From Lachnospiraceae bacterium (GTDB taxonomy: Bacteria > Bacillota > Clostridia > Lachnospirales > Lachnospiraceae): 32,000 bases of DNA. The notes under the pieces are model-generated. The model saw nothing but the letters and a program-made list of their open reading frames with translations. It had not been told where the DNA came from and searched no databases. The position numbers and the translations under genes are program-made. The stretch lies in assembly GCA_017614345.1 (NCBI GenBank), contig JAGACB010000139.1:3028-35027 (forward strand), read 5' to 3'. Shown here piece after piece: positions 4,060 to 26,201 of the stretch (position 1 is its first letter; every line of letters begins with the position of its first letter).

Positions 4060-4117
4060 TAACCGCCTGTGAGGGGCGTTCAAAAGACTGGTTTCTCTTT
4101 TGAGAAAGGTGAAAAAT

Positions 4118-6034
4118 ATGAATGAAAACGGTGGAATGAATCCGATGGGCCAAGGGATGCCGCAGAGTGCACCTCAGCCCGGACAGGGAATGCAGGGGAT
4201 GCCTCAGGGCGCACCTCAGCCCGGACAGGGAATGCAGGGGATGCCTCAGAGAGCACCTCAGCCCGGACAGGGAATGCAGGGAATGCCTCAAAGAGCACCG
4301 CAGGTCGCAGGGCCTCAGGGTATGCCGCAATATGCGGGTCCCGGGGGACCTCAGCGCAGGAACATGGGCAGACCGCCTCAGAAAAAGAAGTCCTATGCAG
4401 CCGGTCCTTATATCGGTATGCTGGGGATCTTCCTGGTCATGGGGGCAGATGCATTTGCCAAGCTGACCATCCTGATCGTGGCTTACCTGCTGCTGGTGGT
4501 CATTAATCCCGGCGGTATGTCCGGTGTCACCATTGATAATCGCGTGCTTATCATGGAGAAGATGGGCCTCAGGGATTCGGTCTATAATACAGATCTGGGA
4601 AAGAATCTGAAGGATTACAAGGATATGAAGGTTCCGGAAAAGGCAACCTACACCGTGATGGTCTATATGATCGGAACGGATCTGGAAACCGGAATGTCTG
4701 CAGGAACCAAAGATATCGAAGAGATGATAAATGCCGAGCTCGATGACGATGTTCAGGTGCTGATCTATGCCGGTGGTACCACCGGATGGAACAATGAGGT
4801 GCTTTCTCCTGCCAAGCATCATATCTGTCTCGTGAATAATCAGGGCTTTTCCGTTGTGGAAAGCCGTGACCGCGTCAATATGGCAAATCCTACCGTCCTT
4901 TCCGACTTTATTGAAATGGGCATGAAGGATTATCCGGCAGATCATTACGGTCTCATTCTCTGGGATCACGGAAACGGTCCGGTTGTGGGCTACGGATATC
5001 CCAGTGATGTGGAAGAAGATGATATCACCATGAGCTTGGCGGAGCTGGATCAGGCATTTTCTATCGGCTTTGACGGTCAGAAGGTGGATTTCATCGGCTT
5101 TGATGCCTGCCTCATGGGTTCCGTGGAAACGGTTCAGATGGTATCCGAGTATACCGATTGTATGATCGCATCTCCGGAGACCACCTACGGAACAGGCTGG
5201 TACTATACGCCTTTCCTGAGTCATTTGTCCGATCATAAGTATGATTCTGTATTCGTGATCGCCGATCGTGTGATCTCTGCGTATAACGAGAGTATTTTCG
5301 GTGAAGAAGACGGTTTCAATCCTCTTCATCCCAACACCAAGGATGAGACGGAAACGGAAGCAGAATCGGAATCCTTCCCTGACGGAGACGATCAGGGACC
5401 GCTGACGGTTCAGCAGGCAATGGATAATTATACCGGCATTCTGACGGATATGATGGGCAGAAAGAATACCAACGTGGTCATGGCGGTTTATGACTGCCGC
5501 AAGATCCACGATGCCATTGATGCTCTTGATGCTCTGACGGTAAGGATCCGTGAGGATTACAATGATGAGCAGATCGCAAACCGCGCCGGTGTTGTCAAGC
5601 AGTATGACAGCCCCGATATGATCGATGCCGGAATGTGGGCTCTGATGTATTTCCCCGAGTATCCGGAAGCAGAAGTGTACTATGACAGAGTAACCGACGT
5701 GGTTTATGACCACAGTGCCTCCGTGGATGTGGGCTATTGCTGCGGTATCAGCCAGTATCTGCCTACCAATGAGAACTCCTACGAGGATTATAAAGAACAT
5801 TACGATGATTTCATTCTGTATGACTGGGGATCAGAGGAATATCACACCATGGTGGGTGATATCATCGACTTCTATGAAAAGCCTGCTGCATCCAAGCCCG
5901 GCCTCTCTGAGCTTTGGAGCAGTATGGTAGATCTGTATCACGCAGAACAGAATGAGAAAGAGAACGCTTCCGAGACCGAATCCGGATCGGAGACGGAAAC
6001 AGAAACCGAAGAGAATATTTCCATGGGTAACTGA
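4118..6034 (+). CDS. Membrane-anchored clostripain-like cysteine peptidase (family C11) with a Gln/Pro/Met-rich repeat tail
   Basis: The C11 catalytic dyad contexts are present: LILWDHGNGPV (His) and DFIGFDACLMGSVE (Cys). The start of the peptidase core reads TYTVMVYMIGTDLE. The N-terminal about 90 aa are low-complexity PQPGQGMQGM repeats, followed by a hydrophobic anchor (YIGMLGIFLVMGADAFAKLTILIVAYLLLVVI). The C-terminal tail is acidic and ETE-rich. I prefer the ATG at 4118 (RBS-like agaaaggtg upstream) over the TTG at 4100 used in the track. Confidence 0.85.
   Translation: MNENGGMNPMGQGMPQSAPQPGQGMQGMPQGAPQPGQGMQGMPQRAPQPGQGMQGMPQRAPQVAGPQGMPQYAGPGGPQRRNMGRPPQKKKSYAAGPYIGMLGIFLVMGADAFAKLTILIVAYLLLVVINPGGMSGVTIDNRVLIMEKMGLRDSVYNTDLGKNLKDYKDMKVPEKATYTVMVYMIGTDLETGMSAGTKDIEEMINAELDDDVQVLIYAGGTTGWNNEVLSPAKHHICLVNNQGFSVVESRDRVNMANPTVLSDFIEMGMKDYPADHYGLILWDHGNGPVVGYGYPSDVEEDDITMSLAELDQAFSIGFDGQKVDFIGFDACLMGSVETVQMVSEYTDCMIASPETTYGTGWYYTPFLSHLSDHKYDSVFVIADRVISAYNESIFGEEDGFNPLHPNTKDETETEAESESFPDGDDQGPLTVQQAMDNYTGILTDMMGRKNTNVVMAVYDCRKIHDAIDALDALTVRIREDYNDEQIANRAGVVKQYDSPDMIDAGMWALMYFPEYPEAEVYYDRVTDVVYDHSASVDVGYCCGISQYLPTNENSYEDYKEHYDDFILYDWGSEEYHTMVGDIIDFYEKPAASKPGLSELWSSMVDLYHAEQNEKENASETESGSETETETEENISMGN
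4148..4330 (+). repeat. In-frame 42-bp tandem repeat (three near-perfect copies at 4169-4210, 4211-4252 and 4253-4294, with degenerate flanking copies)
   Basis: The unit gcacctcagcccggacagggaatgcaggggatgcctcagggc repeats head to tail with only 2-3 substitutions at the unit ends. It encodes APQPGQGMQGMPQ(G/R). Confidence 0.9.
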
Positions 6035-6110
6035 GTTTTGTTTTCTTCGGACATAAGTGTGGAATTAGGGTTCGGGGTCTTTGTACTCTGAACCGGAAGG
6101 AACATTTAAG

Positions 6111-7658
6111 ATGAATTCAAAGAAAACAATGCTGGTCGCAGCGGGGATCACTCTGGGGATCAGTGCTGCCGTGATCGCGGCAGGACCCATACGGAGTGTT
6201 CTTGCGGAGCCTTCCGGAGCTTCCGGATCCGAGGTAAATGTTACTGCGGCTCCTGTGACGGAAGAGGAAGAAACGCTCATTACCAAGCTGATGTCGATCC
6301 TGACCGGATGGTATATCGATCCGAAGGATGAGAAGCTGGCAGGAGGCTTTGGCTCCAATCTGGGAGATCAGAAGCCGGAGATCATCGAAGAGACCACGGA
6401 AGAGGTCTTTCAGATCGATCACAAGGATGCAAAATCTCTTGAAAAGGCTCTTCAGAAAACAGAAAAATCAAAGGATCCCGAGAAGGCCCTCAAGGAATTT
6501 GAAGGTCAGGCGGTGAGCCTGAAGGCGGCAGAGGCCGAAAAGGACAAGGATCTGGGTTATGTCATGGAGCTCGGAGATCATCTGAAGTTCGTGACAAAAG
6601 AAGATCCGGGCCTGAAGCCCAAGGAAAAGATCACGGTTAAGATCGATTCAGTGGAGAAGGATGGAGAGGATTGGATCATCCGTTACATTCTGGTGGATCC
6701 GGAAAGCGGAGAAGAGCTAGAGCCCAGTCCCACACCCGTTCCCACGAAGAAACCAACTGCTACACCTACTCCCGTGAAGGAACCTACCAAAGCACCTACC
6801 GAGGCTCCGAAGCCCACAACGGCTCCGGTCAATACCCCTACTCCGGTACCGACCCCGGTACCCACACCGGTTCCGACTCCCGTACCTACGCCTGTACCTA
6901 CGCCTGTACCGAAGCCGGTTGCCATTACGGGCTTCGTAAACGGAAATCAGACCTTCTATATCGGTGATACCATTTCAGCAGGAATGCTTACGATCCAGGT
7001 TCAGATGAGTGACGGAACCGTGCTGACCAATCCTGCGGGATATGCCGCATCTCCTCTGACCCTTTCTTCCGCATCGAATGTGATCACACTGAGTTATCAG
7101 GGAATTACGGGTACCATGACAGTGCCGGCAAAGCAGAAACCTGTGGCTACTCCGGTTCCTACGCCCGTACCTACGGCAGTACCTACGCCGGTTCCCACCA
7201 AGGCACCCACCCCGGTTCCTACCAAGGCTCCCACGGCGGCGCCTACACCTACCACGGTGGCTCAGGATCCCAATAAGTATCGTTCCCTGGCGGAAGAGAT
7301 CTTCAATCAGCAGAATCAGGTCCGTACCGGCAGCGGTATTCCGGCCCTTACCTGGGATGAGTCCCTTTATTCCCTGGCTTATACAAGAGCAGTGGAGTCT
7401 GCAACGGTCTACAATACCGGCGGAGGCGACGTGGGATATTATTACGCTCATGTTCATGACGGATTCCGTAATGCCAATGCCGAGAATGCCGGATTTGCCT
7501 CCGGTCCCATGGCTGCGGAAAAATGGGTCTCCATGTGGGTGGGCAGTGAAAGCCATCTGAAGAATATCAAGAACGAGAAGCTGACCAAGTGCGGTGTTGG
7601 TGTATATCAGGATCCTTCTACCGGATACTGCTACGTTATGGTGGTATTTAAGGTCTGA
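6111..7658 (+). CDS. Secreted CAP/SCP (YkwD-like) domain protein with Pro/Thr-rich linkers and an Ig-like middle domain
   Basis: Signal peptide MNSKKTMLVAAGITLGISAAVIAAGP, with GGAAGGAA upstream of the ATG at 6111 (the track starts at a TTG at 6081). Two PT linkers flank a beta-rich segment (ITGFVNGNQTFYIGDTISAGMLTIQVQMSDGTVLTNPAGY...). The C-terminal CAP-like region reads LAEEIFNQQNQVRTGSGIPALTWDESLYSLAYTRAVE...SESHLKNIKNEKLTKCGVGVY. Confidence 0.8.
   Translation: MNSKKTMLVAAGITLGISAAVIAAGPIRSVLAEPSGASGSEVNVTAAPVTEEEETLITKLMSILTGWYIDPKDEKLAGGFGSNLGDQKPEIIEETTEEVFQIDHKDAKSLEKALQKTEKSKDPEKALKEFEGQAVSLKAAEAEKDKDLGYVMELGDHLKFVTKEDPGLKPKEKITVKIDSVEKDGEDWIIRYILVDPESGEELEPSPTPVPTKKPTATPTPVKEPTKAPTEAPKPTTAPVNTPTPVPTPVPTPVPTPVPTPVPTPVPKPVAITGFVNGNQTFYIGDTISAGMLTIQVQMSDGTVLTNPAGYAASPLTLSSASNVITLSYQGITGTMTVPAKQKPVATPVPTPVPTAVPTPVPTKAPTPVPTKAPTAAPTPTTVAQDPNKYRSLAEEIFNQQNQVRTGSGIPALTWDESLYSLAYTRAVESATVYNTGGGDVGYYYAHVHDGFRNANAENAGFASGPMAAEKWVSMWVGSESHLKNIKNEKLTKCGVGVYQDPSTGYCYVMVVFKV
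6721..6916 (+). repeat. Pro/Thr linker-coding low-complexity repeat; core (PTPV)n at about 6835-6916
   Basis: Encodes PSPTPVPTKKPTATPTPVKEPTKAPTEAPKPTTAPVNTPTPVPTPVPTPVPTPVPTPVPTPVPKP. Synonymous codons vary between units, so the DNA repeat is imperfect. Confidence 0.85.
7138..7255 (+). repeat. Second Pro/Thr linker-coding low-complexity repeat
   Basis: Encodes KPVATPVPTPVPTAVPTPVPTKAPTPVPTKAPTAAPTPTT. Confidence 0.8.
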
Positions 7659-8451: not shown

Positions 8452-8611
8452 AGGCAAAACCTTTCACAGTAGTTTTGTTACCAAAAGCGTGTCAAACACG
8501 GAAAAAAAGACATTTTTTTTCGGCTACGCCGTAATATGTCATTGAATCCGTCATTTATCCGACATTATAATTTGAAAAAGTGATAAAAGTATGAAAAATG
8601 AGCCCGTATTC

Positions 8612-8640
8612 TTGACGGATTCACGAAACGGTGCGATAAT
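8612..8640 (+). promoter_or_regulatory. Candidate sigma-70 promoter for the ABC export operon
   Basis: TTGACG (8612-8617), a 17-nt spacer and GATAAT (8635-8640) preceded by TGc. A second candidate lies upstream: TTGAAT (8542-8547), an 18-nt spacer, TATAAT (8566-8571). Either one gives a 240-310 nt leader. Confidence 0.5.
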
Positions 8641-8882: not shown

Positions 8883-9971
8883 ATGAACAAAAACAGAAAG
8901 AGGAGAATTGCGGCAGTCGGCACGGTTTTGGTAACAACCGTGCTTTCAGGTTGTTCCGTGATCTTTCCGCCGGAAGAGGAGAACCGGCTGGTCCAGCTTG
9001 TGGAAACAGCGGAGGAACTGGATTATTCGGTGGAGTCCGTCATGGTAGGTGATGTGGTCCAGTCCACCACGGTCCGGGCTACGTATCAGCAGTCTCAGGA
9101 TGAGAATCTGTCATTTCCCGTGGAGGGAACGGTTCGGAATGTCTATGTCCGGACAGGTGATTCCGTTCAGACAGGAGATCTGCTGGCAGAGCTGGATACC
9201 GGAAATACTGCCGAGCAGCTTGAGGAACTGATCAAGGAAATGGAGAAGAATACTCAGGAGAAGGAGAATCTGCTGACCTTAAAGCAGTATGATCTGACGG
9301 ATCTGGCGTTAAAGTATCAGGCAGGCTATTACTCCGACTGGGCGGATTATTCCAAGGCGGTGAGCAATCTTGACAAGAGCTATTCCTCCAGGATCGGCCG
9401 GATCGATGATGATCTGACCATCGGGGAATTAAAGAAGGCCAAGTACGAGAAGATCCTTGAGGAAAGCCGGCTGGTTGCAGGGATGGACGGAACGGTATCA
9501 TTTATCATGGGCGGTCTTAAGGGAAAAGAAGTGAACCCTCAGATGAAGGCCATGACCATCATTGATGCCACGGAATGCGTCTTCTCCGGAAAGACCGAGT
9601 ATATCGACTATTTCACCGACGGCGAAGTCCTGATGATCACCAGCAACGATACCGAGTATGAGGTGACCGTTAAGAAGGGCGAAGAGGTGGAAGAAGGGAT
9701 CTATGAGATCTTCTTCGATCTTGTGACTCCGGACGCTACTTTGAATTTCGGCGCTCAGGGAAGCTATGAGCTGATCCTGAACAAATCAGAGAATACCCTT
9801 TATGTTTCCAGAAAGTGTATCCACGACGACGGAAACGGAAACAACTATGTATATCAGATCAATGAAGACGGAGTCAGAGGACTGACTTATGTCAAGGTCG
9901 GTATTTCCGGCGGTAACCTGACAGAGATCGTAGAAGGTCTTGAAGCAGGCGACATGGTCATTTCGAGGTGA
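8883..9971 (+). CDS. HlyD/MacA-family periplasmic-adaptor (membrane fusion) lipoprotein, paralogue 1
   Basis: Starts MNKNRKRRIAAVGTVLVTTVLSGCS (lipobox LSGC), with AAGGAGAG 9 nt upstream. Lipoyl-hairpin motifs are present (VEGTVRNVYVRTGDSVQTGDLLAELD and VAGMDGTVSFI). A coiled-coil middle region follows, and the C-terminus reads VKVGISGGNLTEIVEGLEAGDMVI. The track's GTG start at 8763 is rejected. Confidence 0.85.
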   Translation: MNKNRKRRIAAVGTVLVTTVLSGCSVIFPPEEENRLVQLVETAEELDYSVESVMVGDVVQSTTVRATYQQSQDENLSFPVEGTVRNVYVRTGDSVQTGDLLAELDTGNTAEQLEELIKEMEKNTQEKENLLTLKQYDLTDLALKYQAGYYSDWADYSKAVSNLDKSYSSRIGRIDDDLTIGELKKAKYEKILEESRLVAGMDGTVSFIMGGLKGKEVNPQMKAMTIIDATECVFSGKTEYIDYFTDGEVLMITSNDTEYEVTVKKGEEVEEGIYEIFFDLVTPDATLNFGAQGSYELILNKSENTLYVSRKCIHDDGNGNNYVYQINEDGVRGLTYVKVGISGGNLTEIVEGLEAGDMVISR

Positions 9972-9977
9972 TGCAGC

Positions 9978-11171
9978 ATGAAGACATCTTTTGAATACAG
10001 AAAAAAGAAACAGGGCGTAAGGCTCCTGGCCGGCGTTCTCTCAGCCGGTATGATCCTCAGCCTCTCTGCGTGCAGTACCGGAGAAAAGGGCTCTGAGTCG
10101 GAAATGATCGAACTGATCGAGCCCCAGGGTGCGGGTGTGGTAACGGAAACCGTTCAGAAACGGGATCTGCGTGTGATGTCCACCTCTTCCGCATCTCTTA
10201 CGGTAAGCTCGGAGGATCTTTCATTTTCCGGAGACGGCAGATTCGATAAGTACGAAGTGAGCTTAGGCGAATTTGTGAAGGAAGGAACGGTTCTTGCCCG
10301 GCTGATCACCAAGGATCAGGAGAAGGAGATCGAGGATTCCGAAAAGAAGTTAGAGGAACTGACGGCGGATTATGCATCGGCCAATCAGATGACGGAGCTG
10401 GATATTGCCATTGCAAGGCAGGAGATCGCGGAATATGCGGGAGCCGGAATGGCAGCTCAGGTGAATATCGCAACCAATCAGCTGAATAAAAGGCTGGTGG
10501 AATATCAGATCGAAAAGGATCGGCAGCAGGAGGAGCTGACAGAGCTTCAGACCCGTATCGAGGAACTGAGGGAAAGCATCTCCCATGCGGAGCTGGTGGC
10601 CCCCTGTGACGGTACCATGGTTTCAAGAAGAGATCTTCGTTACGGCGGAAACGTATCTGCCGAAACGCTGGTGATCTCATTTGCCCCTTCCGGGGAACCC
10701 TATCAGGAAGGGACTAAGCCGGTATACCATGAGGATCAGTTCAGGATCGTCACCTCTGCCGGTGATTTTGTAACAGAGCGTTATCTGACCAAGCAGTGCG
10801 TAGATCATTATGCACTGATCGACGGAAAGCGCCTGGAGCTGGAATACATCCCCTACTCGGAGGATCAGTCCAAGGCTTATTCTCTTGCGGGATTAAAGAA
10901 ACCCACGGTTTACGCGGTCAAGGATGCGGGAGACTGCACACTTGAGGTGGGTGATTACGTGATGGTCTGCTATGTGACGGATCAGGTGCTGGATACGGTA
11001 GCCGTCAGCAAGGATGCGTTACTCAGAGAAGGCCGTACTTATTATGTCTATGTCCTGGAAAACGGCGAACAGAAGCGCCGTGATGTGGAGATCGGTATCA
11101 CCAACGGGATCTATACCCAGATCCTTTCGGGGCTGGAGGAAGGAGATGTGGTCTATGTCCAGAATAAATAA
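9978..11171 (+). CDS. HlyD/MacA-family periplasmic-adaptor lipoprotein, paralogue 2
   Basis: Lipobox LSLSACS. Contains EVSLGEFVKEGTVLARL, a long coiled coil (EKEIEDSEKKLEELTADYA...QQEELTELQTRIEELRESI), APCDGTMVS and the C-terminal VEIGITNGIYTQILSGLEEGDVVYV. It starts 6 nt after the paralogue 1 stop. Confidence 0.85.
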   Translation: MKTSFEYRKKKQGVRLLAGVLSAGMILSLSACSTGEKGSESEMIELIEPQGAGVVTETVQKRDLRVMSTSSASLTVSSEDLSFSGDGRFDKYEVSLGEFVKEGTVLARLITKDQEKEIEDSEKKLEELTADYASANQMTELDIAIARQEIAEYAGAGMAAQVNIATNQLNKRLVEYQIEKDRQQEELTELQTRIEELRESISHAELVAPCDGTMVSRRDLRYGGNVSAETLVISFAPSGEPYQEGTKPVYHEDQFRIVTSAGDFVTERYLTKQCVDHYALIDGKRLELEYIPYSEDQSKAYSLAGLKKPTVYAVKDAGDCTLEVGDYVMVCYVTDQVLDTVAVSKDALLREGRTYYVYVLENGEQKRRDVEIGITNGIYTQILSGLEEGDVVYVQNK

Positions 11172-12447
11172 ACACTGCAAACGGACCATGATCCTTGCAA
11201 CCGGTCTTTGTACCGTGTTCCTCGGCGGCTGCAGCCTGCTTTCCTCCGGAACGGAAGAACAGCTGGAGGCCAGAGAACAGGATCTGTATCTGAAGGCTCT
11301 TGATGAGGATCATTCCGGGAATGCTTCCCTTTCCGTAGCGGAGGTGTCCAGAGGTCCCTTCACTCAGAAGCTTTCCTTCGAAGCAACAGCCATTTTCCCC
11401 ATTAATGAATCCGTCAGTGTGGCGGGAGATGCGGAGGATGCTCTTGCAAACCTGGAGGCCGGTTCTCCGGAGGCAGCGGATTATGAGTCCATCCGGGACG
11501 GTAAACTTCAGAAGGTTGTGGTTCAGGAGATCCTGCTCCCGGATTATGCCAGCTACGTGGAGGCGGGAACACCGCTATTTTCCTATACTCTGGCAGCGGA
11601 GTCCGATGAAGTGGCTCTGACAGCGGCAAGAATGGAGCTGGAGCGGGCGAAAACCAATTATGCGGATTATGTACAGAGCAGCAACGAGCAGTTTGTGAGA
11701 ACTCAGGAACGCATTGCCAAGATGGAAGGCGGCTTTGCCCGTACCAAGGAAGAACTGCAGTATCAGCAGTCAGTGATCTCTTATCAGGAAGAGGTGGCAA
11801 AACGGGAAAAGAAGATCTCGGATCTGGAAAAGAATCTGGAAAATATCCAGAACGACCGGGTCTGCATTGTCAAAGCCCCCATCTCCGGTCAGGTCAGCTC
11901 CCTGCGGATCCCGGATCCCGGAAAGGAACTGGCGGTAGGTGATTCAGTCATGATCATCAATTCCCTCGAGGATATCCTTCTTCGTGTGGATGATAAAAAC
12001 GGCGGCCTTCGTGTGAATCAGAGAGTGAAGGTCTATGCCGGTGAAATCGGTAAATCCGATTCCATGGACGGAACCGTGGTCAGTGCCATCAGCTCCGTAT
12101 CCATGGATATGAAGCAGTCTCTCGGCGAATACTCTTATATCAGACTTGACGGCGATACCTCATCCATTACCCAGAGCGCCATTGATGCACTGGGGAACTG
12201 GTGGAGCAGAGGAAACGGTCAGAGCTTTTCCGTGGTCTCGGATTATATTGAGATCAGCGATGCGCTTCTGGTCGATTCCAGAGCAGTGGTCTTTGACCAG
12301 GGACGTCCTTATGTCATGATCGCGGAAGACGGAAAGACAAGAAGAATGTTCTTCTCCTCCGGCGGAAACAATTCCACCGACTACTGGGTCCTTGACGGAC
12401 TGGAGGAAGGAACGGAAGTGGTCCTGAATCCCGCTGGTAAGCAATAG
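11155..12447 (+). CDS. HlyD/MacA-family periplasmic-adaptor lipoprotein, paralogue 3
   Basis: The preferred start gives MSRINKHCKRTMILATGLCTVFLGGCS (lipobox LGGC) at 11155, preceded by GGAGGAAGGAG and overlapping the paralogue 2 stop by 17 nt. It has a coiled-coil region (MELERAKTNYADYVQ...EEVAKREKKISDLEKNLENIQ), APISGQVSSLRI and the C-terminal YWVLDGLEEGTEVVLNP. The exact start is uncertain: ATGs at 11146 and 11155, and one further downstream at 11188 (MILATG...), are all possible. Confidence 0.8.
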   Translation: MSRINKHCKRTMILATGLCTVFLGGCSLLSSGTEEQLEAREQDLYLKALDEDHSGNASLSVAEVSRGPFTQKLSFEATAIFPINESVSVAGDAEDALANLEAGSPEAADYESIRDGKLQKVVVQEILLPDYASYVEAGTPLFSYTLAAESDEVALTAARMELERAKTNYADYVQSSNEQFVRTQERIAKMEGGFARTKEELQYQQSVISYQEEVAKREKKISDLEKNLENIQNDRVCIVKAPISGQVSSLRIPDPGKELAVGDSVMIINSLEDILLRVDDKNGGLRVNQRVKVYAGEIGKSDSMDGTVVSAISSVSMDMKQSLGEYSYIRLDGDTSSITQSAIDALGNWWSRGNGQSFSVVSDYIEISDALLVDSRAVVFDQGRPYVMIAEDGKTRRMFFSSGGNNSTDYWVLDGLEEGTEVVLNPAGKQ

Positions 12448-12465
12448 AGATAACCGGAGGTTGCT

Positions 12466-15300
12466 ATGTTAAGATTTATGATCCAAAAGCTGACCCATAA
12501 AAAGTGGATGGTGCTCAGTCTTTTGATTGGAAATATCCTGCTGATCGCAGTGGCGGCGTCGATCCCCATGTACAAGAACGCCTCCCTTCAGCGGATGCTG
12601 ACGGATGAATTTCAGACCTATTTCGAGGAAAATAACGTAAACCCCGGCATCATGGTCTTAAGTGCATCCATTCAGAAGCAGTACGGAAAGAGTGCGTTTC
12701 TGAAAATGAGAAACTACGAGAGTGAGATCCTGAAGGAACTGGGACTGACTCCCGCGGAAAAATACCCCGTGACGGAATATCTGTTCTTGAACCCCTCCGG
12801 AGCGGAGCCATTGTTCAAAAGAAGTGACGAAAACAGCAGCAGAAAGCTTCAGTTTTCTGCTCTGACGGATCTTGAGGACCATATCGAGATCGTATCCGGC
12901 CGGATGTATTCCGATCAGATCACGGAGGACGGCTTTATCGAGGTCATTGTATCCACCTCCTGCTTTTCCGATCAGGCCCTTCTGGTGGGAGATGAGTTCT
13001 CCTTCAAGGGCATCAAGGATGCAGACGGAAAGCCCAGAAAGGTCCGTGTGGTAGGCGTGTTCCAGGGCATTACGGATGAGGACGGCTACTGGGTCAAGTC
13101 CTCGGACTATTACCATGACGATATCTTTGTTCCGGTGAGCCTCTTTGACTCACAGTTCCTGGATCAGAGCGGAAAGCTCTATATTTCCGGCTACTTCTAT
13201 GTCCGTTATGATACTCAGAAGGTGGCCTTTGAGAAATCTTCCTTCATTTCCGAGAAGCTTTCCCGGATCGTGGAGGACAATGATGATCTTTACACCTCCA
13301 TCCAGGCAGATGCCCTTCAGGAGATCCTGGCTACCTATCTTGATAAGCAGGACCGGATCAATACAACGCTGATGATCCTTCAGGTTCCCGTTCTGGTGCT
13401 GATCTGTGCATTCCTGTTCATGATCTCCGACCAGATGCTCCAGATGGAGAGAAATGAGATCTCCCAGCTGAAGAGCCGTGGCGCAGGCCGTCTTCAGATC
13501 CTTCTGATCTACCTGCTCCAGTCACTGCTTCTTGCAGGCGTGAGTCTGGTGATCGGTATCCCTGTAGGTATGGTATTCTGCCGGGCGATCGGTTCCTCCA
13601 ATGCGTTCCTGGAGTTCGTCAGCCGGAGAAATCTTCGGATCTCCGTAGACCGGGAGGTATGGATCTACTGTGCGGCAGCATTCTTCGTTTCCGTCTGCAT
13701 GACGGTACTTCCGGTCATCGGCTACAGTAAGGTGACCATTGTCAGCTTAAAGCGCAGCAAGAGCCGCAGCGGCAAGCCCATCTGGCAGAAGTTCTTCCTG
13801 GACTTCCTGATCCTGGGTGTGTCCCTGTACGGATATTATTCCTTCTACAGACAGAGGGATGACCTGTATGCGCAGGTGCTCTCCGGAGCTTCCCTGGATC
13901 CCCTGCTGTTCTTAAGCTCTTCCCTGTTCATTCTGGGAGCCGGAATGGTGGCAGTGCGTCTGCAGCCCATCCTTGTAAAGCTTCTTTACAAGCTTCTGGG
14001 GCGGATCCTTCCTCCTTCGGAATTTGCCTCCTTCCTTCAGACCATCCGGACCGGACGGAGACAGTATTTCATCATGATCTTCCTGGTGCTGACCGTGGCA
14101 CTCGGTATCTTTAATGCAACGGTGGCCCGTACCATCATTTCCAATGCGGAGCGGAACATTGCCTACGTGAACGGTGTGGATGTGGTGCTTCAGGAACACT
14201 GGAATGACAACTCGGCCCAGATCCGTGCAGGTATGGCGGAAAAACTTGCCTATACGGAGCCGGACTTCGGACGTTATGAATCCACGGAAGGCATTGATAA
14301 ACTGACCAAGGTTTATCACTATGAGAAGGTCTACAGCCCCAGCATCAAGGGCATGGGCGTGGATGCCAACTCCATCAAGGTATACGGTATCAACACCAAG
14401 GAATTCGGTGAGATGACGGATCTGGAGAATGGTCTTCTGCCTTATCAGTACCGTCAGTATCTGAACGTACTGGCAACCAATCAGAATGCAGTGCTGGTTT
14501 CCTCTGCCTTCCGCGATACGGTGGGCTTAAAGCTGGGAGACAAGCTGACATTAACGGGAGGAATTGACGGAAAGACCTCCACCTCCTTTGAGATCTACGG
14601 CTTTGTGGATTACTGGCCGGGATATGTTCCCACGGATATCAGCGTTTCCGAGAACGGAACGGTGAATGTAACTCCGAACCTCATGGTCATTGCCAACTTC
14701 GGTGCTCTGGAAGAGCGCTGGGGCAAGGTGCCTTACGAGGTATGGATCAAGCTGAAGGACGGCGTCTCCGCAGACTCCGTTTATGACACCATTGTGGAGC
14801 AGAAGATCGACCTGGACAGCTTTACGGATTCCACCAGGGAAATGAGAAATGTCCGCAAGGACACTCTGTATCAGGGAACCAACGGTATCCTGACCATGAG
14901 CTTTATCATTATCCTGATCCTCTGTGTGGTAGGTTTCCTGATCTACTGGATCCTGTCCATCCGCTCGAGAGAGCTTCTCTTCGGTGTGTTCCGTGCCATG
15001 GGTATGGCGAAGAACGAGATCCTGAGAATGCTGATCGGAGAACAGCTCTTCTCCAGTGTACCCGCCATTTTGCTGGGTGTGGGCGTGGGCTGGATCGCAT
15101 CAAGACTCTTTGTTCCGCTGATCCAGATCGCTTATGCATCCAAGAATCAGATCCTGCCCCTTAAGATCCTGACAGAGAACAGTGACATGATGAAGCTCAT
15201 CGTGATCATTGCCCTGATGTTCCTGATCTGCATGATCATTCTGGCGAGAACGGTATTTTCCATGAAGATCTCTCAGGCTCTGAAGCTTGGAGAAGATTAA
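12466..15300 (+). CDS. Fused double-FtsX (MacB-type) ABC transporter permease, about 10 TM with two large extracytoplasmic domains
   Basis: 944 aa, with GGAGG 7 nt upstream. There are two FtsX-type modules: RNEISQLKSRGAGRLQILLIYLLQSLLLAGVSLVIGIPVG, and SRELLFGVFRAMGMAKNEILRMLIGEQLFSSVPAILLGVGVG. Each is preceded by a TM helix and a hydrophilic domain of about 250-260 aa. Confidence 0.88.
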   Translation: MLRFMIQKLTHKKWMVLSLLIGNILLIAVAASIPMYKNASLQRMLTDEFQTYFEENNVNPGIMVLSASIQKQYGKSAFLKMRNYESEILKELGLTPAEKYPVTEYLFLNPSGAEPLFKRSDENSSRKLQFSALTDLEDHIEIVSGRMYSDQITEDGFIEVIVSTSCFSDQALLVGDEFSFKGIKDADGKPRKVRVVGVFQGITDEDGYWVKSSDYYHDDIFVPVSLFDSQFLDQSGKLYISGYFYVRYDTQKVAFEKSSFISEKLSRIVEDNDDLYTSIQADALQEILATYLDKQDRINTTLMILQVPVLVLICAFLFMISDQMLQMERNEISQLKSRGAGRLQILLIYLLQSLLLAGVSLVIGIPVGMVFCRAIGSSNAFLEFVSRRNLRISVDREVWIYCAAAFFVSVCMTVLPVIGYSKVTIVSLKRSKSRSGKPIWQKFFLDFLILGVSLYGYYSFYRQRDDLYAQVLSGASLDPLLFLSSSLFILGAGMVAVRLQPILVKLLYKLLGRILPPSEFASFLQTIRTGRRQYFIMIFLVLTVALGIFNATVARTIISNAERNIAYVNGVDVVLQEHWNDNSAQIRAGMAEKLAYTEPDFGRYESTEGIDKLTKVYHYEKVYSPSIKGMGVDANSIKVYGINTKEFGEMTDLENGLLPYQYRQYLNVLATNQNAVLVSSAFRDTVGLKLGDKLTLTGGIDGKTSTSFEIYGFVDYWPGYVPTDISVSENGTVNVTPNLMVIANFGALEERWGKVPYEVWIKLKDGVSADSVYDTIVEQKIDLDSFTDSTREMRNVRKDTLYQGTNGILTMSFIIILILCVVGFLIYWILSIRSRELLFGVFRAMGMAKNEILRMLIGEQLFSSVPAILLGVGVGWIASRLFVPLIQIAYASKNQILPLKILTENSDMMKLIVIIALMFLICMIILARTVFSMKISQALKLGED

Positions 15301-15365
15301 GTGACAAGAGAAAGGAGAATGGTCCGGTTTTGTGTTATACGTAGCCGGGTCATGTGTGAGATAAT

Positions 15366-16052
15366 ATGAATATGATCACAGCAAAGGATCTCTGTCGCGA
15401 TTTCAAGCTCGGAGACGGAACCACCTTCCGTGTACTGAACAACATTCAGATCGAGATCCCGGAAAAGAAACTTGCGATCCTCAGGGGCCCTTCCGGTTCC
15501 GGAAAGACAACCCTGATGAATATCATCGGTGCGCTGGATATGCCTACGGCGGGGACCGTTACCTTTGACGGCAAGAACATCACCGCCATGAGCGAAGCAA
15601 AGCGCGAACAGTTAAGACGTCGGGATATCGGATTCATTTTCCAGTCCGTATCCCTGATCCCCATTATGACAGCCTATGAAAATGTGGAATTCGCCCTGAG
15701 AATGGGCGGCGGAAAAATGAGCAAGGCGGAGACTAAGGCCCGTGTCACCGAGTGCCTTTCCATGGTAGGCCTGGCGGGGCGTATGAACCATATGCCCCAG
15801 GAGCTCTCCGGCGGTGAGCAGCAGCGTGTGGCCATAGCCCGTGCCATTGCCCACCGGCCCAAGGTGATCTTTGCGGATGAGCCTACGGCGGAGCTGGACT
15901 CCCTGACCGCCAAGGCCGTGGTACAGATCTTTAAGAAGCTTGTGGAACAGGAGCAGGTCACCATCATCATGACCACCCACGACGTGGGACTCATGGATAT
16001 GGCGGATGTGGTATATATGCTTGAGGACGGAGAGATAGTGAAAAATGGCTGA
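15366..16052 (+). CDS. ABC transporter ATP-binding protein (MacB/LolD-type NBD), subunit 1
   Basis: Walker [11 protein letters not shown]-loop FIFQS, signature [14 protein letters not shown], Walker [10 protein letters not shown]-loop TTHD. 228 aa. The RBS is weak; the start could be 15366 or 15372. Confidence 0.92.
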
Positions 16053-16986
16053 TGAAATGATTTTAGCGGACAATCTTGTCAAGATCTACAAGACCGAGGA
16101 CCTGGAGGTCCTGGCGCTGCAGGGACTGGATCTGACCGTGCAGAAGGGTGAACTGATGGCCATCATCGGTAACTCCGGCTCCGGTAAATCCACCTTCCTC
16201 AACATGCTGGGCGGTCTGGACCGTCCCAGTGCCGGAAAACTCTACGTAGACGGCAAGAATCTGTTCACCATGACCGAAAAGGAACTGGTGGAATATAAAA
16301 AGAGAACCGTTGGTTTTGTGTGGCAGAACAATGCCAGAAACCTGCTGCCCTACTTAAGCGCCCTGGAAAATGTCATGACCCCCATGATGTTCTCCGGCGT
16401 GAAGAAGCGGAAAGAGCGTGCCTTGGAACTGCTGGATCTGGTGGGTTTATCTCACCGGAAGAACAGCCGCCTAAACCAGCTCTCCGGCGGTGAGCAGCAG
16501 CGTGTGGCCATAGCCATTGCCCTGGCCAATAATCCGAAGCTCCTTCTGGCGGATGAGCCCACAGGTTCTGTAGACCGAAAGAGCGCAGACTATATCCTGG
16601 ATGTATTCCGGAGACTGAACCGGGAAACGGATCTGACCATTGTGATCGTAACCCATGACGTAAATCTCTCCAAGAACGTAAGCCGTGTGGTATCCATCCG
16701 CGACGGACGTACCAGCAGCGAGATGATCATGAAGAAGGATTATGCGGAGGCCACGGATCTGGATCTTTCCAAGATCTGGAAGACAGAGGAAGAGACCCAG
16801 GAAGAGTTCGCCATCGTGGATAAGGTGGGCCGGATCCAGATCCCCAGAGAGCATCTGGATCAGTTGGGTATCAAGCACGGAACCGACCGTATGCGGGTGG
16901 AATTCGACGGAGAGCGGATCATCCTCCGTTCCTCGGAAAGTCCGGCACATACCTCCGGTGCTACCCAGAATCTGGATGATGAGTGA
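16045..16986 (+). CDS. ABC transporter ATP-binding protein, subunit 2, with a C-terminal extension of about 90 aa containing an AbrB/SpoVT-like motif
   Basis: Walker [10 protein letters not shown], signature [14 protein letters not shown], Walker B LLADEPT, H-loop THD. It overlaps subunit 1 by 8 nt (ATGGCTGATGA). The extension includes [39 protein letters not shown]. Confidence 0.9.
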
Positions 16987-17138: not shown

Positions 17139-17366
17139 GTGGAAAGAAAAGATGCCATCAGCATGGCGGAACAGATCAGAAAGACTCTGCCCGAGGAAGA
17201 AAGGGTTTACATGGATGATCTGATCAAAGCATTAAAGAGTAAAAAGGGTCCGGAGGATCCGGATGATTATGCCGATCTTCTCCTTGGCTACGCCGAGGAA
17301 TATGAGGATGTCAATGAGCAACTCTGCTGCACACTGGCGGATTACCTCGCCGAGGAATTCGGCTGA
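17139..17366 (+). CDS. Small acidic hypothetical protein (75 aa)
   Basis: GTG start with AAAGGAG 9 nt upstream (an ATG at 17163 is an alternative). The sequence is very Asp/Glu-rich (…PEDPDDYADLLLGYAEEYEDVNEQLCCTLADYLAEEFG). A strong terminator follows immediately. I recognise no family. Confidence 0.5.
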   Translation: MERKDAISMAEQIRKTLPEEERVYMDDLIKALKSKKGPEDPDDYADLLLGYAEEYEDVNEQLCCTLADYLAEEFG

Positions 17367-17396
17367 ATTCTTAAATCAAAAGACAGTGTCAGGTAT

Positions 17397-17433
17397 ATCG
17401 TCTGCAGGTTTTGCCTGCAGACGATGCTTTTTC
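17397..17433 (+). terminator. Rho-independent terminator
   Basis: A 12-bp stem atcgtctgcagg / cctgcagacgat has a ttttg loop and is followed by gcttttt. Confidence 0.85.
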
Positions 17434-17444
17434 TGCCGAAAGGA

Positions 17445-17473
17445 TTGACGGAATCAAGGATTTTGAGTACAAT
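17445..17473 (+). promoter_or_regulatory. Sigma-70-type promoter for the MetRS-like / Cys-rich gene pair
   Basis: TTGACG (17445-17450), a 17-nt spacer and TACAAT (17468-17473), about 85 nt upstream of the ATG at 17557. Confidence 0.65.
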
Positions 17474-21237: not shown

Positions 21238-22419
21238 ATGGCTAAGAAAATCGTATTAGCTGGCGCATGCCGTACCGCTATCGGTACCATGGGCGGATCA
21301 CTCAGCACAACCCCTGCGGTAGAGCTGGGACGGATCGTTATCCAGGAAGCAGTAAAGAGAGCAGGGATCAAACCCGAGGATGTTGACCATGTATACATGG
21401 GTTGTGTAATCCAGGCAGGTCTCGGACAGAACGTTGCTCGTCAGGCTTCCATCAAGGCAGGTCTTCCCATTGAGACTACTGCAGTAACTGTAAACGTTGT
21501 CTGCGGTTCCGGTCTGAACAGCGTAAATATGGCAGCTCAGATGATCGCAAACGGAGATGCTGATATTGTGATCGCCGGCGGTATGGAGAATATGTCTATG
21601 GCTCCTTATGCCATGATGAACGGCCGTTACGGATACAGAATGAACAACGGTACTCTTGTAGATACCATGGTAAATGATGCTCTTTGGGATGCATTCAACC
21701 AGTATCACATGGGTATCACAGCAGAGAATGTAGCAGAGAAGTATGGTCTTACCCGTACCGAGCTGGATGAGTTCTCCGCATGGTCTCAGCAGAAGGCTGT
21801 AGCTGCCATCGAGGCAGGACGCTTCAAGGATGAGATCGTTCCCGTTGAAGTTAAGAAGAAGAAGGAAACCGTTGTATTTGATACAGATGAAGGCCCTCGT
21901 CCCGGAACTACCGCGGAGAGCATTGCAAAGCTTCGTCCCGCATTCAAGCCCGACGGTATCGTAACCGCTGCAAACTCTTCCGGTATCAACGACGGTGCTG
22001 CAGCAGTTGTTGTTATGAGTGCTGAGAAGGCTGAAGAGCTGGGTGTTAAGCCTATGGCTACCTGGGTTGCAGGCGCTCTCGGCGGCGTAGATCCTTCCAT
22101 CATGGGTATCGGTCCTGTTGCTGCCGTTAACAAGGTATTCAAGAAGACAGGCCTGACCATGGATGATATCGATCTGGTTGAGGCAAATGAAGCATTTGCT
22201 GCTCAGTCCCTCGGTGTTGACCGTGAGCTTCATTTCGATCATGACAAGCTCAACGTAAACGGCGGTGCCATCGCTCTGGGTCACCCCGTAGGTGCTTCCG
22301 GTTGCCGTATCCTGGTTACTCTGCTTCATGAGATGCAGAAGAGAGATGCAAAGACCGGTCTTGCTACCCTTTGCATCGGCGGCGGTATGGGCTGCGCAAC
22401 CATCGTAAAGAGAGATTGA
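21238..22419 (+). CDS. thl: Acetyl-CoA C-acetyltransferase (thiolase)
   Basis: 393 aa, with GGAGGA upstream. Thiolase hallmarks are present: [12 protein letters not shown] (active-site Cys), [28 protein letters not shown] and CIGGGMG. Confidence 0.95.
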
Positions 22420-22512
22420 TTTTACAAATCAGCAGGCATAGATCGATGAAACTTCGGTCTATGCCCGCTTTGCGTATGTTATTTGTATTATATTTTTCGG
22501 AGGAAACCAGTT

Positions 22513-23301
22513 ATGGAATTTGTTTTATATGAGCAGAAGGGCCAGTACGCAGTGATCACCATCAGCCGCGAGAAGGCTCTGAACGCACTGAACAGCCAGG
22601 TACTCGATGAACTGAATGCAGTTCTCGATCAGGTAGATCTGGCAGAGGTTCGTTGTCTGATCCTGACCGGTGCAGGTCCCAAGTCCTTTGTTGCAGGTGC
22701 TGATATCGGTGAGATGAGCACACTGACCAAGGCTGAGGGCGAAGCATTCGGTAAGAAGGGAAATGATGTATTCCGCAAGCTTGAGACATTCCCCATTCCT
22801 GTGATCGCTGCAGTGAACGGTTTTGCACTTGGCGGCGGCTGCGAGATCGCCATGAGCTGCGATATCCGCATCTGCTCCGAGAACGCTCTGTTCGGACAGC
22901 CCGAGGTTGGTCTCGGTATCACACCCGGATTCGGCGGAACTCAGCGCTTAGCTCGTCTTGTAGGTCCCGGAATGGCTAAGCAGCTGATCTACACTGCGAG
23001 AAACATCAAGGCTGACGAGGCATATCGTATCGGTCTTGTAAATGCAGTTTATCCTGCTGAGGAGCTTATGGGTGCTGCAGAGAAGATGGCTGCAGGAATC
23101 GCAAAGAATGCTCCCATTGCTGTCAGAAACTGCAAGAAGGCCATCAACGAGGGTCTTGATGCTGCAACCATGGATGAGGCTATTGTGATCGAAGAGAAGC
23201 TCTTCGGTGACTGCTTCGAGACAGAGGATCAGCGTTACGGTATGGAATTCTTCCTTGACAAGAACAAGGAGAAGGTAAAGGAACCGTTCAAGAATAAGTA
23301 A
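22513..23301 (+). CDS. crt: Short-chain enoyl-CoA hydratase (crotonase)
   Basis: Starts MEFVLYEQKGQYAVITISREKALNALN at 22513, with GGAGGA at 22498-22503 (the track ORF starts earlier, at 22483). Crotonase-fold motifs are present: FVAGADI, AAVNGFALGGGCEIAMSCDIR and FGQPEVGLGITPGFGGTQRL. Confidence 0.93.
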   Translation: MEFVLYEQKGQYAVITISREKALNALNSQVLDELNAVLDQVDLAEVRCLILTGAGPKSFVAGADIGEMSTLTKAEGEAFGKKGNDVFRKLETFPIPVIAAVNGFALGGGCEIAMSCDIRICSENALFGQPEVGLGITPGFGGTQRLARLVGPGMAKQLIYTARNIKADEAYRIGLVNAVYPAEELMGAAEKMAAGIAKNAPIAVRNCKKAINEGLDAATMDEAIVIEEKLFGDCFETEDQRYGMEFFLDKNKEKVKEPFKNK

Positions 23302-23340
23302 AGAATAATAATTCTAATATAATTTCAGGAGGTACACAAC

Positions 23341-24174
23341 ATGAAGGTTGGTATTATCGGTGCCGGTACCATGGGTTCCGGAATCGCTCAGGCATTTGCC
23401 ATGACCGATGGTTTTGAGGTATGTCTTTGCGACATCAAGACCGAGTATGCAGAAGGCGGTCTTGCAAAGATCCAGAAGAACATGAATTTCCTTGTAAGCA
23501 AGGAGAAGATCACTCAGGAGAAGGCTGATGAGATCCTTTCCCGCATCACCACAGGTCTTAACGACATCTGTGCAGATTGCGATCTTGTCGTAGAAGTTGC
23601 TCTTGAGAAGATGGAGATCAAGCAGCAGATCTTTGCTCAGCTGATGCAGATCTGCAGAAAGGATTGCATCTTTGCTTCCAATACATCTTCCCTTTCCATC
23701 ACAAAGATGGGCGAGGGTCTTGACAGACCGCTCGTTGGTATGCATTTCTTTAACCCTGCAGATCGTATGAAGCTGGTTGAGGTGATCGCAGGCGAGAATA
23801 CTCCCGCTGAGCTGGTTGCTAAGATCAAGGAGATCGCGGAGCAAATCGGAAAGACACCCGTTGAAGTTAAGGAAGCTCCCGGATTCGTTGTTAACCGTAT
23901 CCTGATCCCTATGATCAACGAAGCGATCAACGTACTTGATGCAGGTACTGCTTCTGCAGAGGATATCGATACCGCTATGAAGCTCGGTGCTTCTCATCCC
24001 ATGGGACCCCTTGCACTCGGTGACCTGGTTGGTCTTGATATCTGCCTTGCCATCATGGAAGTTATCTACAATGAGACCGGCGATGCTAAGTACAAGCCCG
24101 CACCCCTCTTGGAGAAACTCGTAGCTGAGAAGAAGCTCGGAAGAAAGACCGGAGAAGGTATCTTTAAGTATTAA
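23341..24174 (+). CDS. hbd: 3-hydroxybutyryl-CoA dehydrogenase
   Basis: Starts MKVGIIGAGTMGSGIAQ (Rossmann GxGxxG). Also contains FASNTSSLSIT, GMHFFNPA, PGFVVNRILIPMINEA and MGPLALGDLVGLD. AGGAGG lies upstream. Confidence 0.95.
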   Translation: MKVGIIGAGTMGSGIAQAFAMTDGFEVCLCDIKTEYAEGGLAKIQKNMNFLVSKEKITQEKADEILSRITTGLNDICADCDLVVEVALEKMEIKQQIFAQLMQICRKDCIFASNTSSLSITKMGEGLDRPLVGMHFFNPADRMKLVEVIAGENTPAELVAKIKEIAEQIGKTPVEVKEAPGFVVNRILIPMINEAINVLDAGTASAEDIDTAMKLGASHPMGPLALGDLVGLDICLAIMEVIYNETGDAKYKPAPLLEKLVAEKKLGRKTGEGIFKY

Positions 24175-24197
24175 TATAAATGGAGGATCAATCGATC

Positions 24198-25364: not shown

Positions 25365-25383
25365 TGAAAGGAGCGAATAAACA

Positions 25384-26175: not shown

Positions 26176-26201
26176 TCGTAAAGGAAAAGTGGTGAATAAA
26201 A

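Follow-up and report, generated by a model that had tools for sequence, protein, structure and literature searches.

A 32,000-nucleotide (nt) stretch of Lachnospiraceae bacterium DNA (GenBank assembly GCA_017614345.1, contig JAGACB010000139.1, positions 3,028 to 35,027; hereafter the window) carries six adjacent genes predicted to encode an ATP-binding cassette (ABC) transport system in which no subunit is repeated. They specify three MacA-like adaptor lipoproteins of the membrane fusion protein (MFP) type, one permease with two FtsX modules in a single chain, and two unlike ATPases, each named here for its nucleotide-binding domain (NBD). Judged by its sequences the operon lies outside any named, characterized system, yet it does not constitute a new category: it has the attributes of the type VII (MacB-FtsX) ABC systems, namely FtsX modules, a large domain between helices 1 and 2, and NBDs of the LolD/MacB/FtsE class with intact motifs. 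We consider it probable, with considerable room for doubt, that the products form a monoderm type VII (MacB-superfamily) export machine, in which the different adaptors co-assemble and the cargo is amphipathic.

Organization and conservation of the operon

The operon comprises six co-oriented open reading frames (ORFs) on the + strand, between positions 8883 and 16986 of the window:

8883-9971, + strand: MFP1, adaptor of 362 aa, lipobox LSGC
9978-11171, + strand: MFP2, adaptor of 397 aa, lipobox LSAC
11155-12447, + strand: MFP3, adaptor of 430 aa, lipobox LGGC; an alternative ATG lies at 11146
12466-15300, + strand: permease of 944 aa, double-FtsX, single chain
15366-16052, + strand: NBD1, ABC ATPase of 228 aa
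16045-16986, + strand: NBD2, ABC ATPase of 313 aa

MFP1 and MFP2 are separated by a gap of 6 nt, MFP2 and MFP3 overlap by 17 nt, 18 nt separate MFP3 from the permease, and NBD1 and NBD2 overlap by 8 nt. A previous reading of the window made without database searches (the sequence-only reading) gave the same six ORFs, coordinates, spacings, lipoboxes and shared adaptor C-terminus, all of which we recover from the ORF list and the sequence; it had not recorded the 65-nt gap between the permease and NBD1. The overlaps and tight spacing, together with the lack of a strong internal terminator, identify the six genes as a single predicted operon, and suggest coupled, roughly equimolar translation. 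A scan for terminator-like hairpins found none on the + strand within 8883-16986 comparable to the one that lies downstream of NBD2, and GC content is even across the region. Shine-Dalgarno-like sequences stand ahead of five of the six starts, that of NBD1 being the weak one, and MFP1 has a AAGGAGAG ribosome-binding site upstream. The permease-NBD1 gap contains a 16-codon ORF (15319-15369) with a strong AAAGGAGA ribosome-binding site, whose TGA overlaps the ATG of NBD1 (ATGA); it might provide coupling to the weak NBD1 start or might have arisen by chance. The same permease sequence is present in two independent metagenome assemblies, with nearly identical gene calls across the operon.

We surveyed 4 loci from GTDB genomes, recovered by a scan with a single permease sequence, and 80 metagenome loci, which together define 38 permease lineages at 85% identity; the set consists mainly of metagenome contigs without taxonomy. 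Pairwise identity between the permeases of these lineages is 34-82%, and more than 120 full-length relatives with 45-57% identity to the window's permease are found among proteins of Lachnospiraceae metagenome-assembled genomes (MAGs). The order MFP1-MFP2-MFP3-permease-NBD1-NBD2 is retained in 38 of 38 lineages wherever flanking DNA is present. Upstream of the permease the lineages fall into three groups:

26 lineages: MFP1, MFP2 and MFP3 as separate genes, each with its highest score against the matching paralogue profile
7 lineages: MFP2 and MFP3 joined in a single ORF (613-722 aa)
5 lineages: contig ends upstream

Where the upstream DNA is complete and the genes are separate (26 lineages), all three paralogues are always present. 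The adaptor profiles were trained on many of the same loci, and the loci outside the training set (L003, L006, L021, L061, L083 and L065) give concordant assignments. All-against-all clustering of the flanking ORFs revealed no other gene family in more than 4 of the 38 lineages; specifically, no gene for a hydrolase or carrier partner, cargo precursor, modification enzyme, immunity protein or regulator co-varies with the operon in their flanks. The genome-neighborhood survey suggested by the sequence-only reading finds the arrangement conserved, and that reading's remark that no substrate, immunity or two-component gene adjoins the operon extends to the 38 lineages. The conservation across these lineages and the hidden Markov model (HMM) E-values given below are far beyond chance. 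Apart from the 38 lineages, the loci L087-L089, representing one abundant gut lineage, encode, immediately ahead of the six-gene operon (positions 1-1984), a response regulator of the OmpR type and a HAMP/HisKA kinase; the NBD2 of this lineage (protein P0278) is indexed in 335 blocks of the metagenome collection.

The permease

The Pfam FtsX model (PF02687) matches the permease in two stretches (E 6.9e-20). Hydropathy and an AlphaFold2 model, with a mean predicted local distance difference test (pLDDT) score of 79.9, both give 10 transmembrane (TM) helices arranged as 4 + 2 linker + 4, in the order TM1, an extracytoplasmic domain of ~268 aa, TM2-4, the two linker helices, TM7, a second extracytoplasmic domain of ~254 aa, and TM8-10. 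The two domains map as follows:

12565-13368, + strand: extracytoplasmic domain 1, aa ~34-301, between TM1 (15-33) and TM2 (302-320)
14125-14886, + strand: extracytoplasmic domain 2, aa ~554-807, a MacB_PCD (PF12704) domain

MacB_PCD matches residues 541-776 with E 8e-7 and 30 bits (cut-off 27), and domain 1, which is mixed alpha/beta in the AlphaFold2 model, has no Pfam match of its own. The two halves of the permease are barely recognizable as duplicates, with ~18% of aligned columns identical (hhalign E 8e-4), and on that ground we reject their recent duplication. The predicted coupling-helix segments are likewise unlike each other: the first has the form E328/E331/I332...K336-S337-R338-G339 and the second S831-I832/R835...R843-A844-M845-G846-M847, these residues being invariant in 23 homologues. 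In Foldseek comparisons the best full-length match is Escherichia coli YbbP (9ge6 and 9ge7, E 7e-21 and 4e-20, at 12-13% identity), followed by BceB (ranks 3-7), MacB, LolC/E and Spr0695 (rank 14). Sequence and profile searches of the PDB with the permease recovered only weak matches in the FtsX region (PsdB, LolF/LolC, YtrF), YbbP not being found. The single chain, the hydropathy, the predicted fold and its best match together support the description of the permease as a single-chain pseudo-heterodimer, as modeled here. The sequence-only reading had proposed both this and the presence of two FtsX modules with their extracytoplasmic domains in 944 aa, to which Pfam, hydropathy and AlphaFold2 now add the helix count.

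The three adaptors

The NCBIfam model TIGR01730 (RND_mfp subfamily) matches all three adaptors, with E-values of 1.1e-20 for MFP1 (residues 49-360), 1.6e-22 for MFP2 and 4e-10 for MFP3 (133-427), the bit scores all lying below the curated cut-off of 94.9; MFP1 additionally matches the Pfam models Biotin_lipoyl_2 and HlyD_D23. We built a separate orthologue profile for each paralogue and ran these against the PDB. The best matches were MacA structures of Aggregatibacter actinomycetemcomitans and E. coli over the full length (with 4dk0, MFP1 E 8.8e-31, MFP2 2e-29, MFP3 1.2e-22), and the alignments run end to end with 4dk0, 3fpp and 5nik. Each adaptor hence has in one chain the MacA set of lipoyl, alpha-hairpin, beta-barrel and membrane-proximal domains, and the suspicion that these lipoproteins might lack the MFP fold, raised as a way to overturn the sequence-only reading, can be laid aside. 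MFP3 is the most diverged of the three. The hairpin-tip RLS motif of MacA is not evident in the MFP1 consensus, by eye in one alignment. The fused TriAxB chain (6vej) is among the top matches of the MFP1 and MFP2 profiles.

A C-terminal GLE(A/E)G(D/T)xV motif is common to the three adaptors. BLAST comparisons between them give 25-36% identity over partial stretches only, and profile-profile comparison relates them with a probability of 99.9-100% and E-values of 1e-45 to 1e-34. They are evidently old paralogues, as had been suspected from their divergence, and we reject a recent duplication in view of the low identity over mere fragments. The lipoboxes would anchor the adaptors in the membrane; by eye, the lipobox is seen in 29 of 29 MFP1 orthologues and nearly all of 26 MFP2 orthologues (one being unclear).

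In the 7 lineages with a fused adaptor, the protein bears the MFP2 lipobox at its N-terminus and its MFP3-type C-terminal half has no signal peptide of its own. A search with one fused adaptor recovered at least 120 additional clusters, with full coverage and lengths of 697-774 aa and with Roseburia- and Acetatifactor-labeled proteins among them; the fusion is hence a real and successful variant. As Rosetta-stone evidence it implies that MFP2 and MFP3 sit side by side, and it lends indirect support to a hetero-oligomeric adaptor assembly. A passage of PMC4338810 mentions a fused dimeric adaptor, DSY0927 of Desulfitobacterium hafniense, as noted in 2009; no Desulfitobacterium protein was among the matches of our fused-adaptor search.

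The two ATPases and the C-terminal domain of NBD2

NBD1 matches ABC_tran (E 1.6e-34), the DevA model (E 7e-62) and the LolD model (7e-61), the latter two below their cut-offs, and is predicted to be an ABC ATPase of the LolD/MacB/DevA class. NBD2 matches ABC_tran (E 8.8e-34) and, again below the cut-off, the LolD model (E 3.1e-68). With 38% identity to each other and one-to-one co-conservation out to Bacilli, the two are the non-identical pair that the sequence-only reading had described. Its suggestion that one of the two ATP sites might be degenerate does not hold up: the Walker A motif, Q-loop, LSGGEQQR signature, Walker B D-E and H-loop histidine are kept in both, across 51 distinct sequences of NBD1 and 43 of NBD2. 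Two metagenome contigs of at most ~3 kb encode a 548-aa protein (P0198) with NBD1-like and NBD2-like parts and an AbrB tail in one polypeptide; it could be a genuine fusion, which would support an NBD1-NBD2 heterodimer, or could result from an artefactual frameshift in the 8-nt overlap, and is weak evidence.

NBD2 further carries a C-terminal domain that had escaped the sequence-only reading:

16792-16944, + strand: SpoVT/AbrB-like C-terminal domain of NBD2, aa ~250-300, ~60 aa

The tail of NBD2 measures ~85 aa, and in 21 of 34 orthologues it is recognized by PF04014 (SpoVT/AbrB, MazE-type), with a best E of 1.6e-5; the window's own tail scanned alone gives no Pfam match, the domain being recognized only through the orthologues. 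The AlphaFold2 model of the tail resolves a short helix and a beta-hairpin, with pLDDT 74-85 for residues 255-300, and the motif VLD(R/K/H)AGRxQIP is found in all NBD2 orthologues examined, including those of Brevibacillus, Oscillospiraceae and a Spirochaetaceae-labeled contig. AbrB-type domains usually pair into a barrel, and each NBD2 has one copy. The tail is probably a regulatory or oligomerization module; one may speculate that it pairs two transporters, binds another protein or binds DNA. The reviews consulted make no mention of an AbrB-like domain on an ABC ATPase, although no search aimed at the domain was made.

The wider family and the order of its evolution

An exhaustive HMMER search with the permease yielded 793 clusters (50% identity) at E <= 1e-30; the best 150 of these are nearly all full-length, at 31-47% identity. 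Members that carry a name include those of Brevibacillus ginsengisoli, Mahella australiensis, Oscillospiraceae MAGs and one Spirochaetaceae-labeled MAG, and their sampled gene neighborhoods read as follows:

L091, Brevibacillus ginsengisoli: NBD1-like, one MFP, permease, NBD2-like with AbrB tail
L095, sporeformer: one MFP, permease, two NBDs
L092, Oscillospiraceae: three MFPs, permease, two NBDs
L093, Spirochaetaceae-labeled contig: permease, two NBDs; upstream cut
L094, metagenome contig: upstream ORF cut by contig end, permease, two NBDs
L090, Mahella australiensis: one MFP and permease only
L096, metagenome contig: one MFP and permease only

Between Brevibacillus and the Lachnospiraceae, NBD1 is one-to-one orthologous at 50-62% identity and NBD2 at 57-73%, the permease being conserved at ~30%; the NBDs of the distant loci have 50-59% identity to NBD1 and 57-63% to NBD2. 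Since the distant relatives have the same two NBDs in most sampled cases and keep the AbrB tail, the NBD pair and the tail are ancestral to the family. Conversely, the relatives with one adaptor imply that the triplication is derived in Lachnospiraceae and Oscillospiraceae, with the MFP2-MFP3 fusion being secondary in some lineages. The single adaptors of the distant relatives score MFP1 > MFP2 > MFP3, nearly equally on all three profiles. The permease of L094 is 37% identical to that of the window and derives from sample ERZ27257290, which it shares with one assembly carrying the window permease; its NBD2 homologue has an acidic N-terminal extension of ~75 aa.

Comparison with characterized systems

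In architecture the permease is of the YbbP type, with one chain, ten helices in a 4+2+4 arrangement and two extracytoplasmic domains. E. coli YbbAP-TesA (9ge6/9ge7; PMC12646458) accordingly shares with our system the single-chain 10-helix permease, two FtsX modules, two linkers, two extracytoplasmic domains and separate NBDs. It differs in using two copies of one ATPase (YbbP-YbbA2, PMC8277102) and the hydrolase TesA, whereas here there are two NBD genes and three adaptors, and no hydrolase is conserved in the flanks; the permease scores 17.2 bits on the YbbP equivalog model NF041854 against a cut-off of 999, which speaks against orthology. With MacAB-TolC (E. coli, A. actinomycetemcomitans) the operon shares MacA-like adaptors, the FtsX fold with an extracytoplasmic domain, and NBDs of the MacB/LolD class, and mechanotransmission is to be expected in both. 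MacAB-TolC has as its own a homodimeric 4-helix MacB with a fused NBD, one homo-hexameric adaptor and the TolC duct; here, by contrast, a monoderm host has a fused, asymmetric permease, two separate and unlike NBDs and three adaptors. The MacB equivalog model NF007826 reaches 176-193 bits against a cut-off of 966, and the window contains no OEP/TolC-like ORF. The relatives are Lachnospiraceae, and hence monoderm, in keeping with the earlier expectation of a host without an outer membrane.

Spr0693-0694-0695 of Streptococcus pneumoniae and YknWXYZ of Bacillus resemble the operon in their monoderm hosts, MFP adaptor, FtsX permease and separate NBD, but have one adaptor, a homodimeric 4-helix permease and one NBD type; their adaptor is thought to form a channel in the wall zone, and they are implicated in resistance to antimicrobial peptides or toxins (PMC5768738, PMC4887032). 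Unlike adaptors in an obligate hetero-oligomer are known from TriABC-OpmH of Pseudomonas aeruginosa (PMC4338810, PMC4446572), for which the structure of a fused TriAxB is available (6vej); TriC, however, is a resistance-nodulation-division (RND) trimer in a diderm, and the adaptors are two rather than three. BceAB provides a fused 10-helix FtsX permease (BceB) in Firmicutes, but with a single extracytoplasmic domain, only one type of NBD, obligate BceRS and no adaptor, as against two extracytoplasmic domains, three adaptors and no two-component system in either the window or the 38 lineages. In LolCDE the LolCE pair is an asymmetric permease, encoded however by two genes and working with a LolD homodimer and no adaptor. 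Scores on the models for LolCDE (TIGR02211/02212), DevBCA (TIGR02982/02971) and ADOP (TIGR03434) all fall below the cut-offs (LolD 229.6 bits against 307.75, DevA 208.9 against 295.8, ADOP 40 against 622.3), as do those on the equivalog models for DarC and DarD.

The sequence-only reading had set the operon against a background of uniformly symmetric MacB-type systems. That holds for homodimeric MacB itself, but is incomplete for the superfamily and its neighbors, as LolCDE is heterodimeric, BceB and YbbP are fused 10-helix chains and TriABC employs two adaptors (PMC5985334, PMC12646458, PMC4338810). Each of the asymmetries therefore has a precedent, the fused permease in YbbP and BceB, the asymmetric permease in LolCE, the two adaptors in TriAB and the fused adaptor in DSY0927, while their combination does not. 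Full-text literature searches found no description of a set that unites three adaptors with a double-FtsX permease and two NBDs, and none of a YbbP-type permease with MacA-like adaptors, a heteromeric type VII NBD pair or three adaptor paralogues. One article considered as a possible prior description (PMC5780487) was rejected, as it concerns an unrelated Prevotella gene.

A proposed mechanism and its alternatives

In the export machine that we favor, the YbbP-like 10-helix chain would supply two non-equivalent FtsX halves, each with its own extracytoplasmic domain and coupling helix. Given a permease made of a single asymmetric chain, each NBD most likely has one particular half as its docking site, and ATP would be hydrolyzed at two canonical sites. 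Going by what is established for type VII ABC transporters, the permease would form no transmembrane pore for cytoplasmic substrates, and its extracytoplasmic domains would act on substrate at the outer face of the membrane (PMC5985334, PMC12646458). By analogy with the mechanotransmission of MacB, LolCDE and YbbAP, closure of the NBDs on ATP would be relayed along the long TM helices and so reach the extracytoplasmic domains. On these the three lipoprotein adaptors would assemble jointly, most likely as a 2:2:2 hetero-hexameric tube: in MacAB a six-membered ring stands on a two-fold permease, which leaves three non-equivalent adaptor positions per half, and three paralogues in two copies each could fill precisely these, the fused MFP2-MFP3 together with MFP1 obeying the same arithmetic. 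Substrate picked up from the outer leaflet of the membrane or from the wall zone would be led away from the membrane through the tube. For monoderms there is a precedent in an adaptor channel that crosses the wall zone (PMC5985334), and YbbAP extracts hydrophobic compounds from the membrane (PMC12646458).

The absence of a linked precursor or immunity gene in the 38 lineages favors general membrane-active compounds over a dedicated product as the cargo, the most probable being a class of amphipathic or hydrophobic gut compounds such as antimicrobial peptides, bile-acid-like detergents or lipids. Detoxification modules often have a two-component system adjoining, and the response regulator and kinase of L087-L089 give weak support to a stress-responsive role of this kind.

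Several observations weigh against this proposal. The hexamer is taken over from MacA and YknX by analogy, and the co-assembly and stoichiometry of adaptors, permease and NBDs are likewise drawn from sequence and analogy. The fusion joins MFP2 and MFP3 and leaves MFP1 out; the lipobox is kept, by eye, in only about half of the MFP3 orthologues, so that the anchoring of MFP3 varies. Relatives with a single adaptor indicate that one adaptor type suffices for the permease family, and the triplication could accordingly mean specialization instead of obligatory co-assembly. YbbAP, the closest fold, pairs with a hydrolase and not with an adaptor, and the extracytoplasmic domains have almost no sequence in common with solved proteins, which makes the substrate analogy weak. 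Finally, a targeted search found the L087-type two-component system in none of the 38 lineages.

Some of these points would be accommodated if the three adaptors were exchangeable partners, each forming its own homo-oligomer on the same permease for different substrate ranges or conditions. The single adaptors of distant family members, their near-equal scores on the three paralogue profiles, the high divergence of the paralogues and the variable anchoring of MFP3 could all be read in this way, but the covalent MFP2-MFP3 fusion (7 of 38 lineages and at least 120 clusters) forces 1:1 co-localization, none of the 26 complete separate-gene lineages has dispensed with a paralogue, the overlap and tight spacing suggest roughly equimolar synthesis, and TriAB sets the precedent of an obligate hetero-oligomer (PMC4338810). 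We hence regard free exchange of adaptors as quite improbable. Somewhat more serious, although still unlikely in our judgement, is a mechanotransducer or extractor in the manner of FtsEX, LolCDE or YbbAP-TesA, which would use ATP to extract a specific envelope lipid, lipoprotein or glycolipid and pass it on to the wall, or to activate an extracellular enzyme, with the adaptors as a scaffold. Such a role would suit the closest fold, YbbP being a membrane extractor (PMC12646458), the preference of both NBDs for the models of LolD and of DevA, a component of glycolipid export, and the position of the operon amid housekeeping genes, at uniform GC and with no linked cargo gene. It is less easily reconciled with the lack of a co-varying hydrolase or carrier gene in the 38 lineages, with LolD, DevA and YbbP scores well under the curated cut-offs, and with full-length MacA-like adaptors whose hairpin region typifies conduit-forming pumps.

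We attach very little probability to a system dedicated to secreting one specific peptide or protein, for instance a bacteriocin or toxin, whose gene lies elsewhere in the genome; MacAB with enterotoxin STII and AS-48EFGH would be the parallels. MacB-family pumps do export peptides (PMC5985334), and the NBDs give sub-threshold matches to the bacteriocin-export ABC models TIGR03608 and DarD; against this, the flanks of the 38 lineages hold no precursor, modification or immunity gene, and the operon is widespread in variable housekeeping neighborhoods. The co-assembled export machine thus remains our preferred interpretation. A bolder version of it, which we offer as a doubtful conjecture, is a fully asymmetric complex in fixed register, which contains the permease, NBD1 and NBD2 once and each adaptor twice, and in which the adaptors would have distinct jobs (substrate entry, permease activation and a wall-spanning conduit) and the AbrB-like domain would tie the ATPase cycle to DNA binding or transporter pairing.

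Flanking signals and neighboring genes

Four further features were noted around the operon, the promoter and terminator assignments being consensus matches only:

8542-8571, + strand: sigma-70-like promoter match, 10/12 consensus
8612-8640, + strand: sigma-70-like promoter match, 10/12 consensus
17139-17366: acidic ORF of 75 codons, GTG start with a good ribosome-binding site, between NBD2 and the hairpin
17396-17426, + strand: terminator-like hairpin, the first strong one after the operon, with a 14-bp stem and a T run behind it

Both promoter matches lie in the 425-nt intergenic region 5' of MFP1, in which the number of sigma-70-like sites is about that expected from shuffled sequence. The 75-codon ORF has no family match and is not conserved in the other loci, and for these reasons we reject it as a member of the system. 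A promoter-like site at 17445-17473 precedes a MetG-like gene: the segment 17557-20314 encodes a 660-aa class I methionyl-tRNA-synthetase-like protein (tRNA-synt_1g), followed by a DUF6062 protein with Cys-x-x-Cys motifs.

On the other side of the operon are a clostripain-family (Peptidase_C11) protein with N-terminal GMPQ(G/R)APQPGQGMQ repeats ahead of a hydrophobic segment (4100-6034), and a secreted CAP-domain (PF00188) protein with very long Pro/Thr-rich PTPVPT linkers (6081-7658), whose repeats give rise to spurious long ORFs on the opposite strand. Further downstream, a butyrate-pathway cluster (21238-27266) encodes thiolase, crotonase, 3-hydroxybutyryl-CoA dehydrogenase, acyl-CoA dehydrogenase and an electron-transfer flavoprotein (ETF) subunit, with the ORF at 26202-27266 presumed to be the second ETF subunit; it fits a butyrate-producing Lachnospiraceae host. 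The 732-aa ORF that follows (27440-29638) has no Pfam match.

Implications

The operon bears on two open questions about MacB-type systems, namely how a six-membered ring is matched to a two-fold permease and what adaptors do where there is no outer membrane. Here evolution has seemingly labeled the adaptor positions, by means of three paralogues of which two are fused in many lineages. Because the permease halves, the ATP sites and the adaptors are each separately encoded, the individual positions could be mutated independently, which is impossible in the homo-oligomeric MacAB, and relatives with one, two (fused) and three adaptors form a natural comparison series. Were the fixed-register complex with its AbrB link to prove true, gene expression would be informed of transport activity by the pump itself, with no separate regulator needed. 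Abundant butyrate producers of the gut, the Lachnospiraceae, including Roseburia-labeled genomes, commonly carry the operon, so that its cargo could be relevant to the tolerance of these commensals toward bile, host peptides or competitors.

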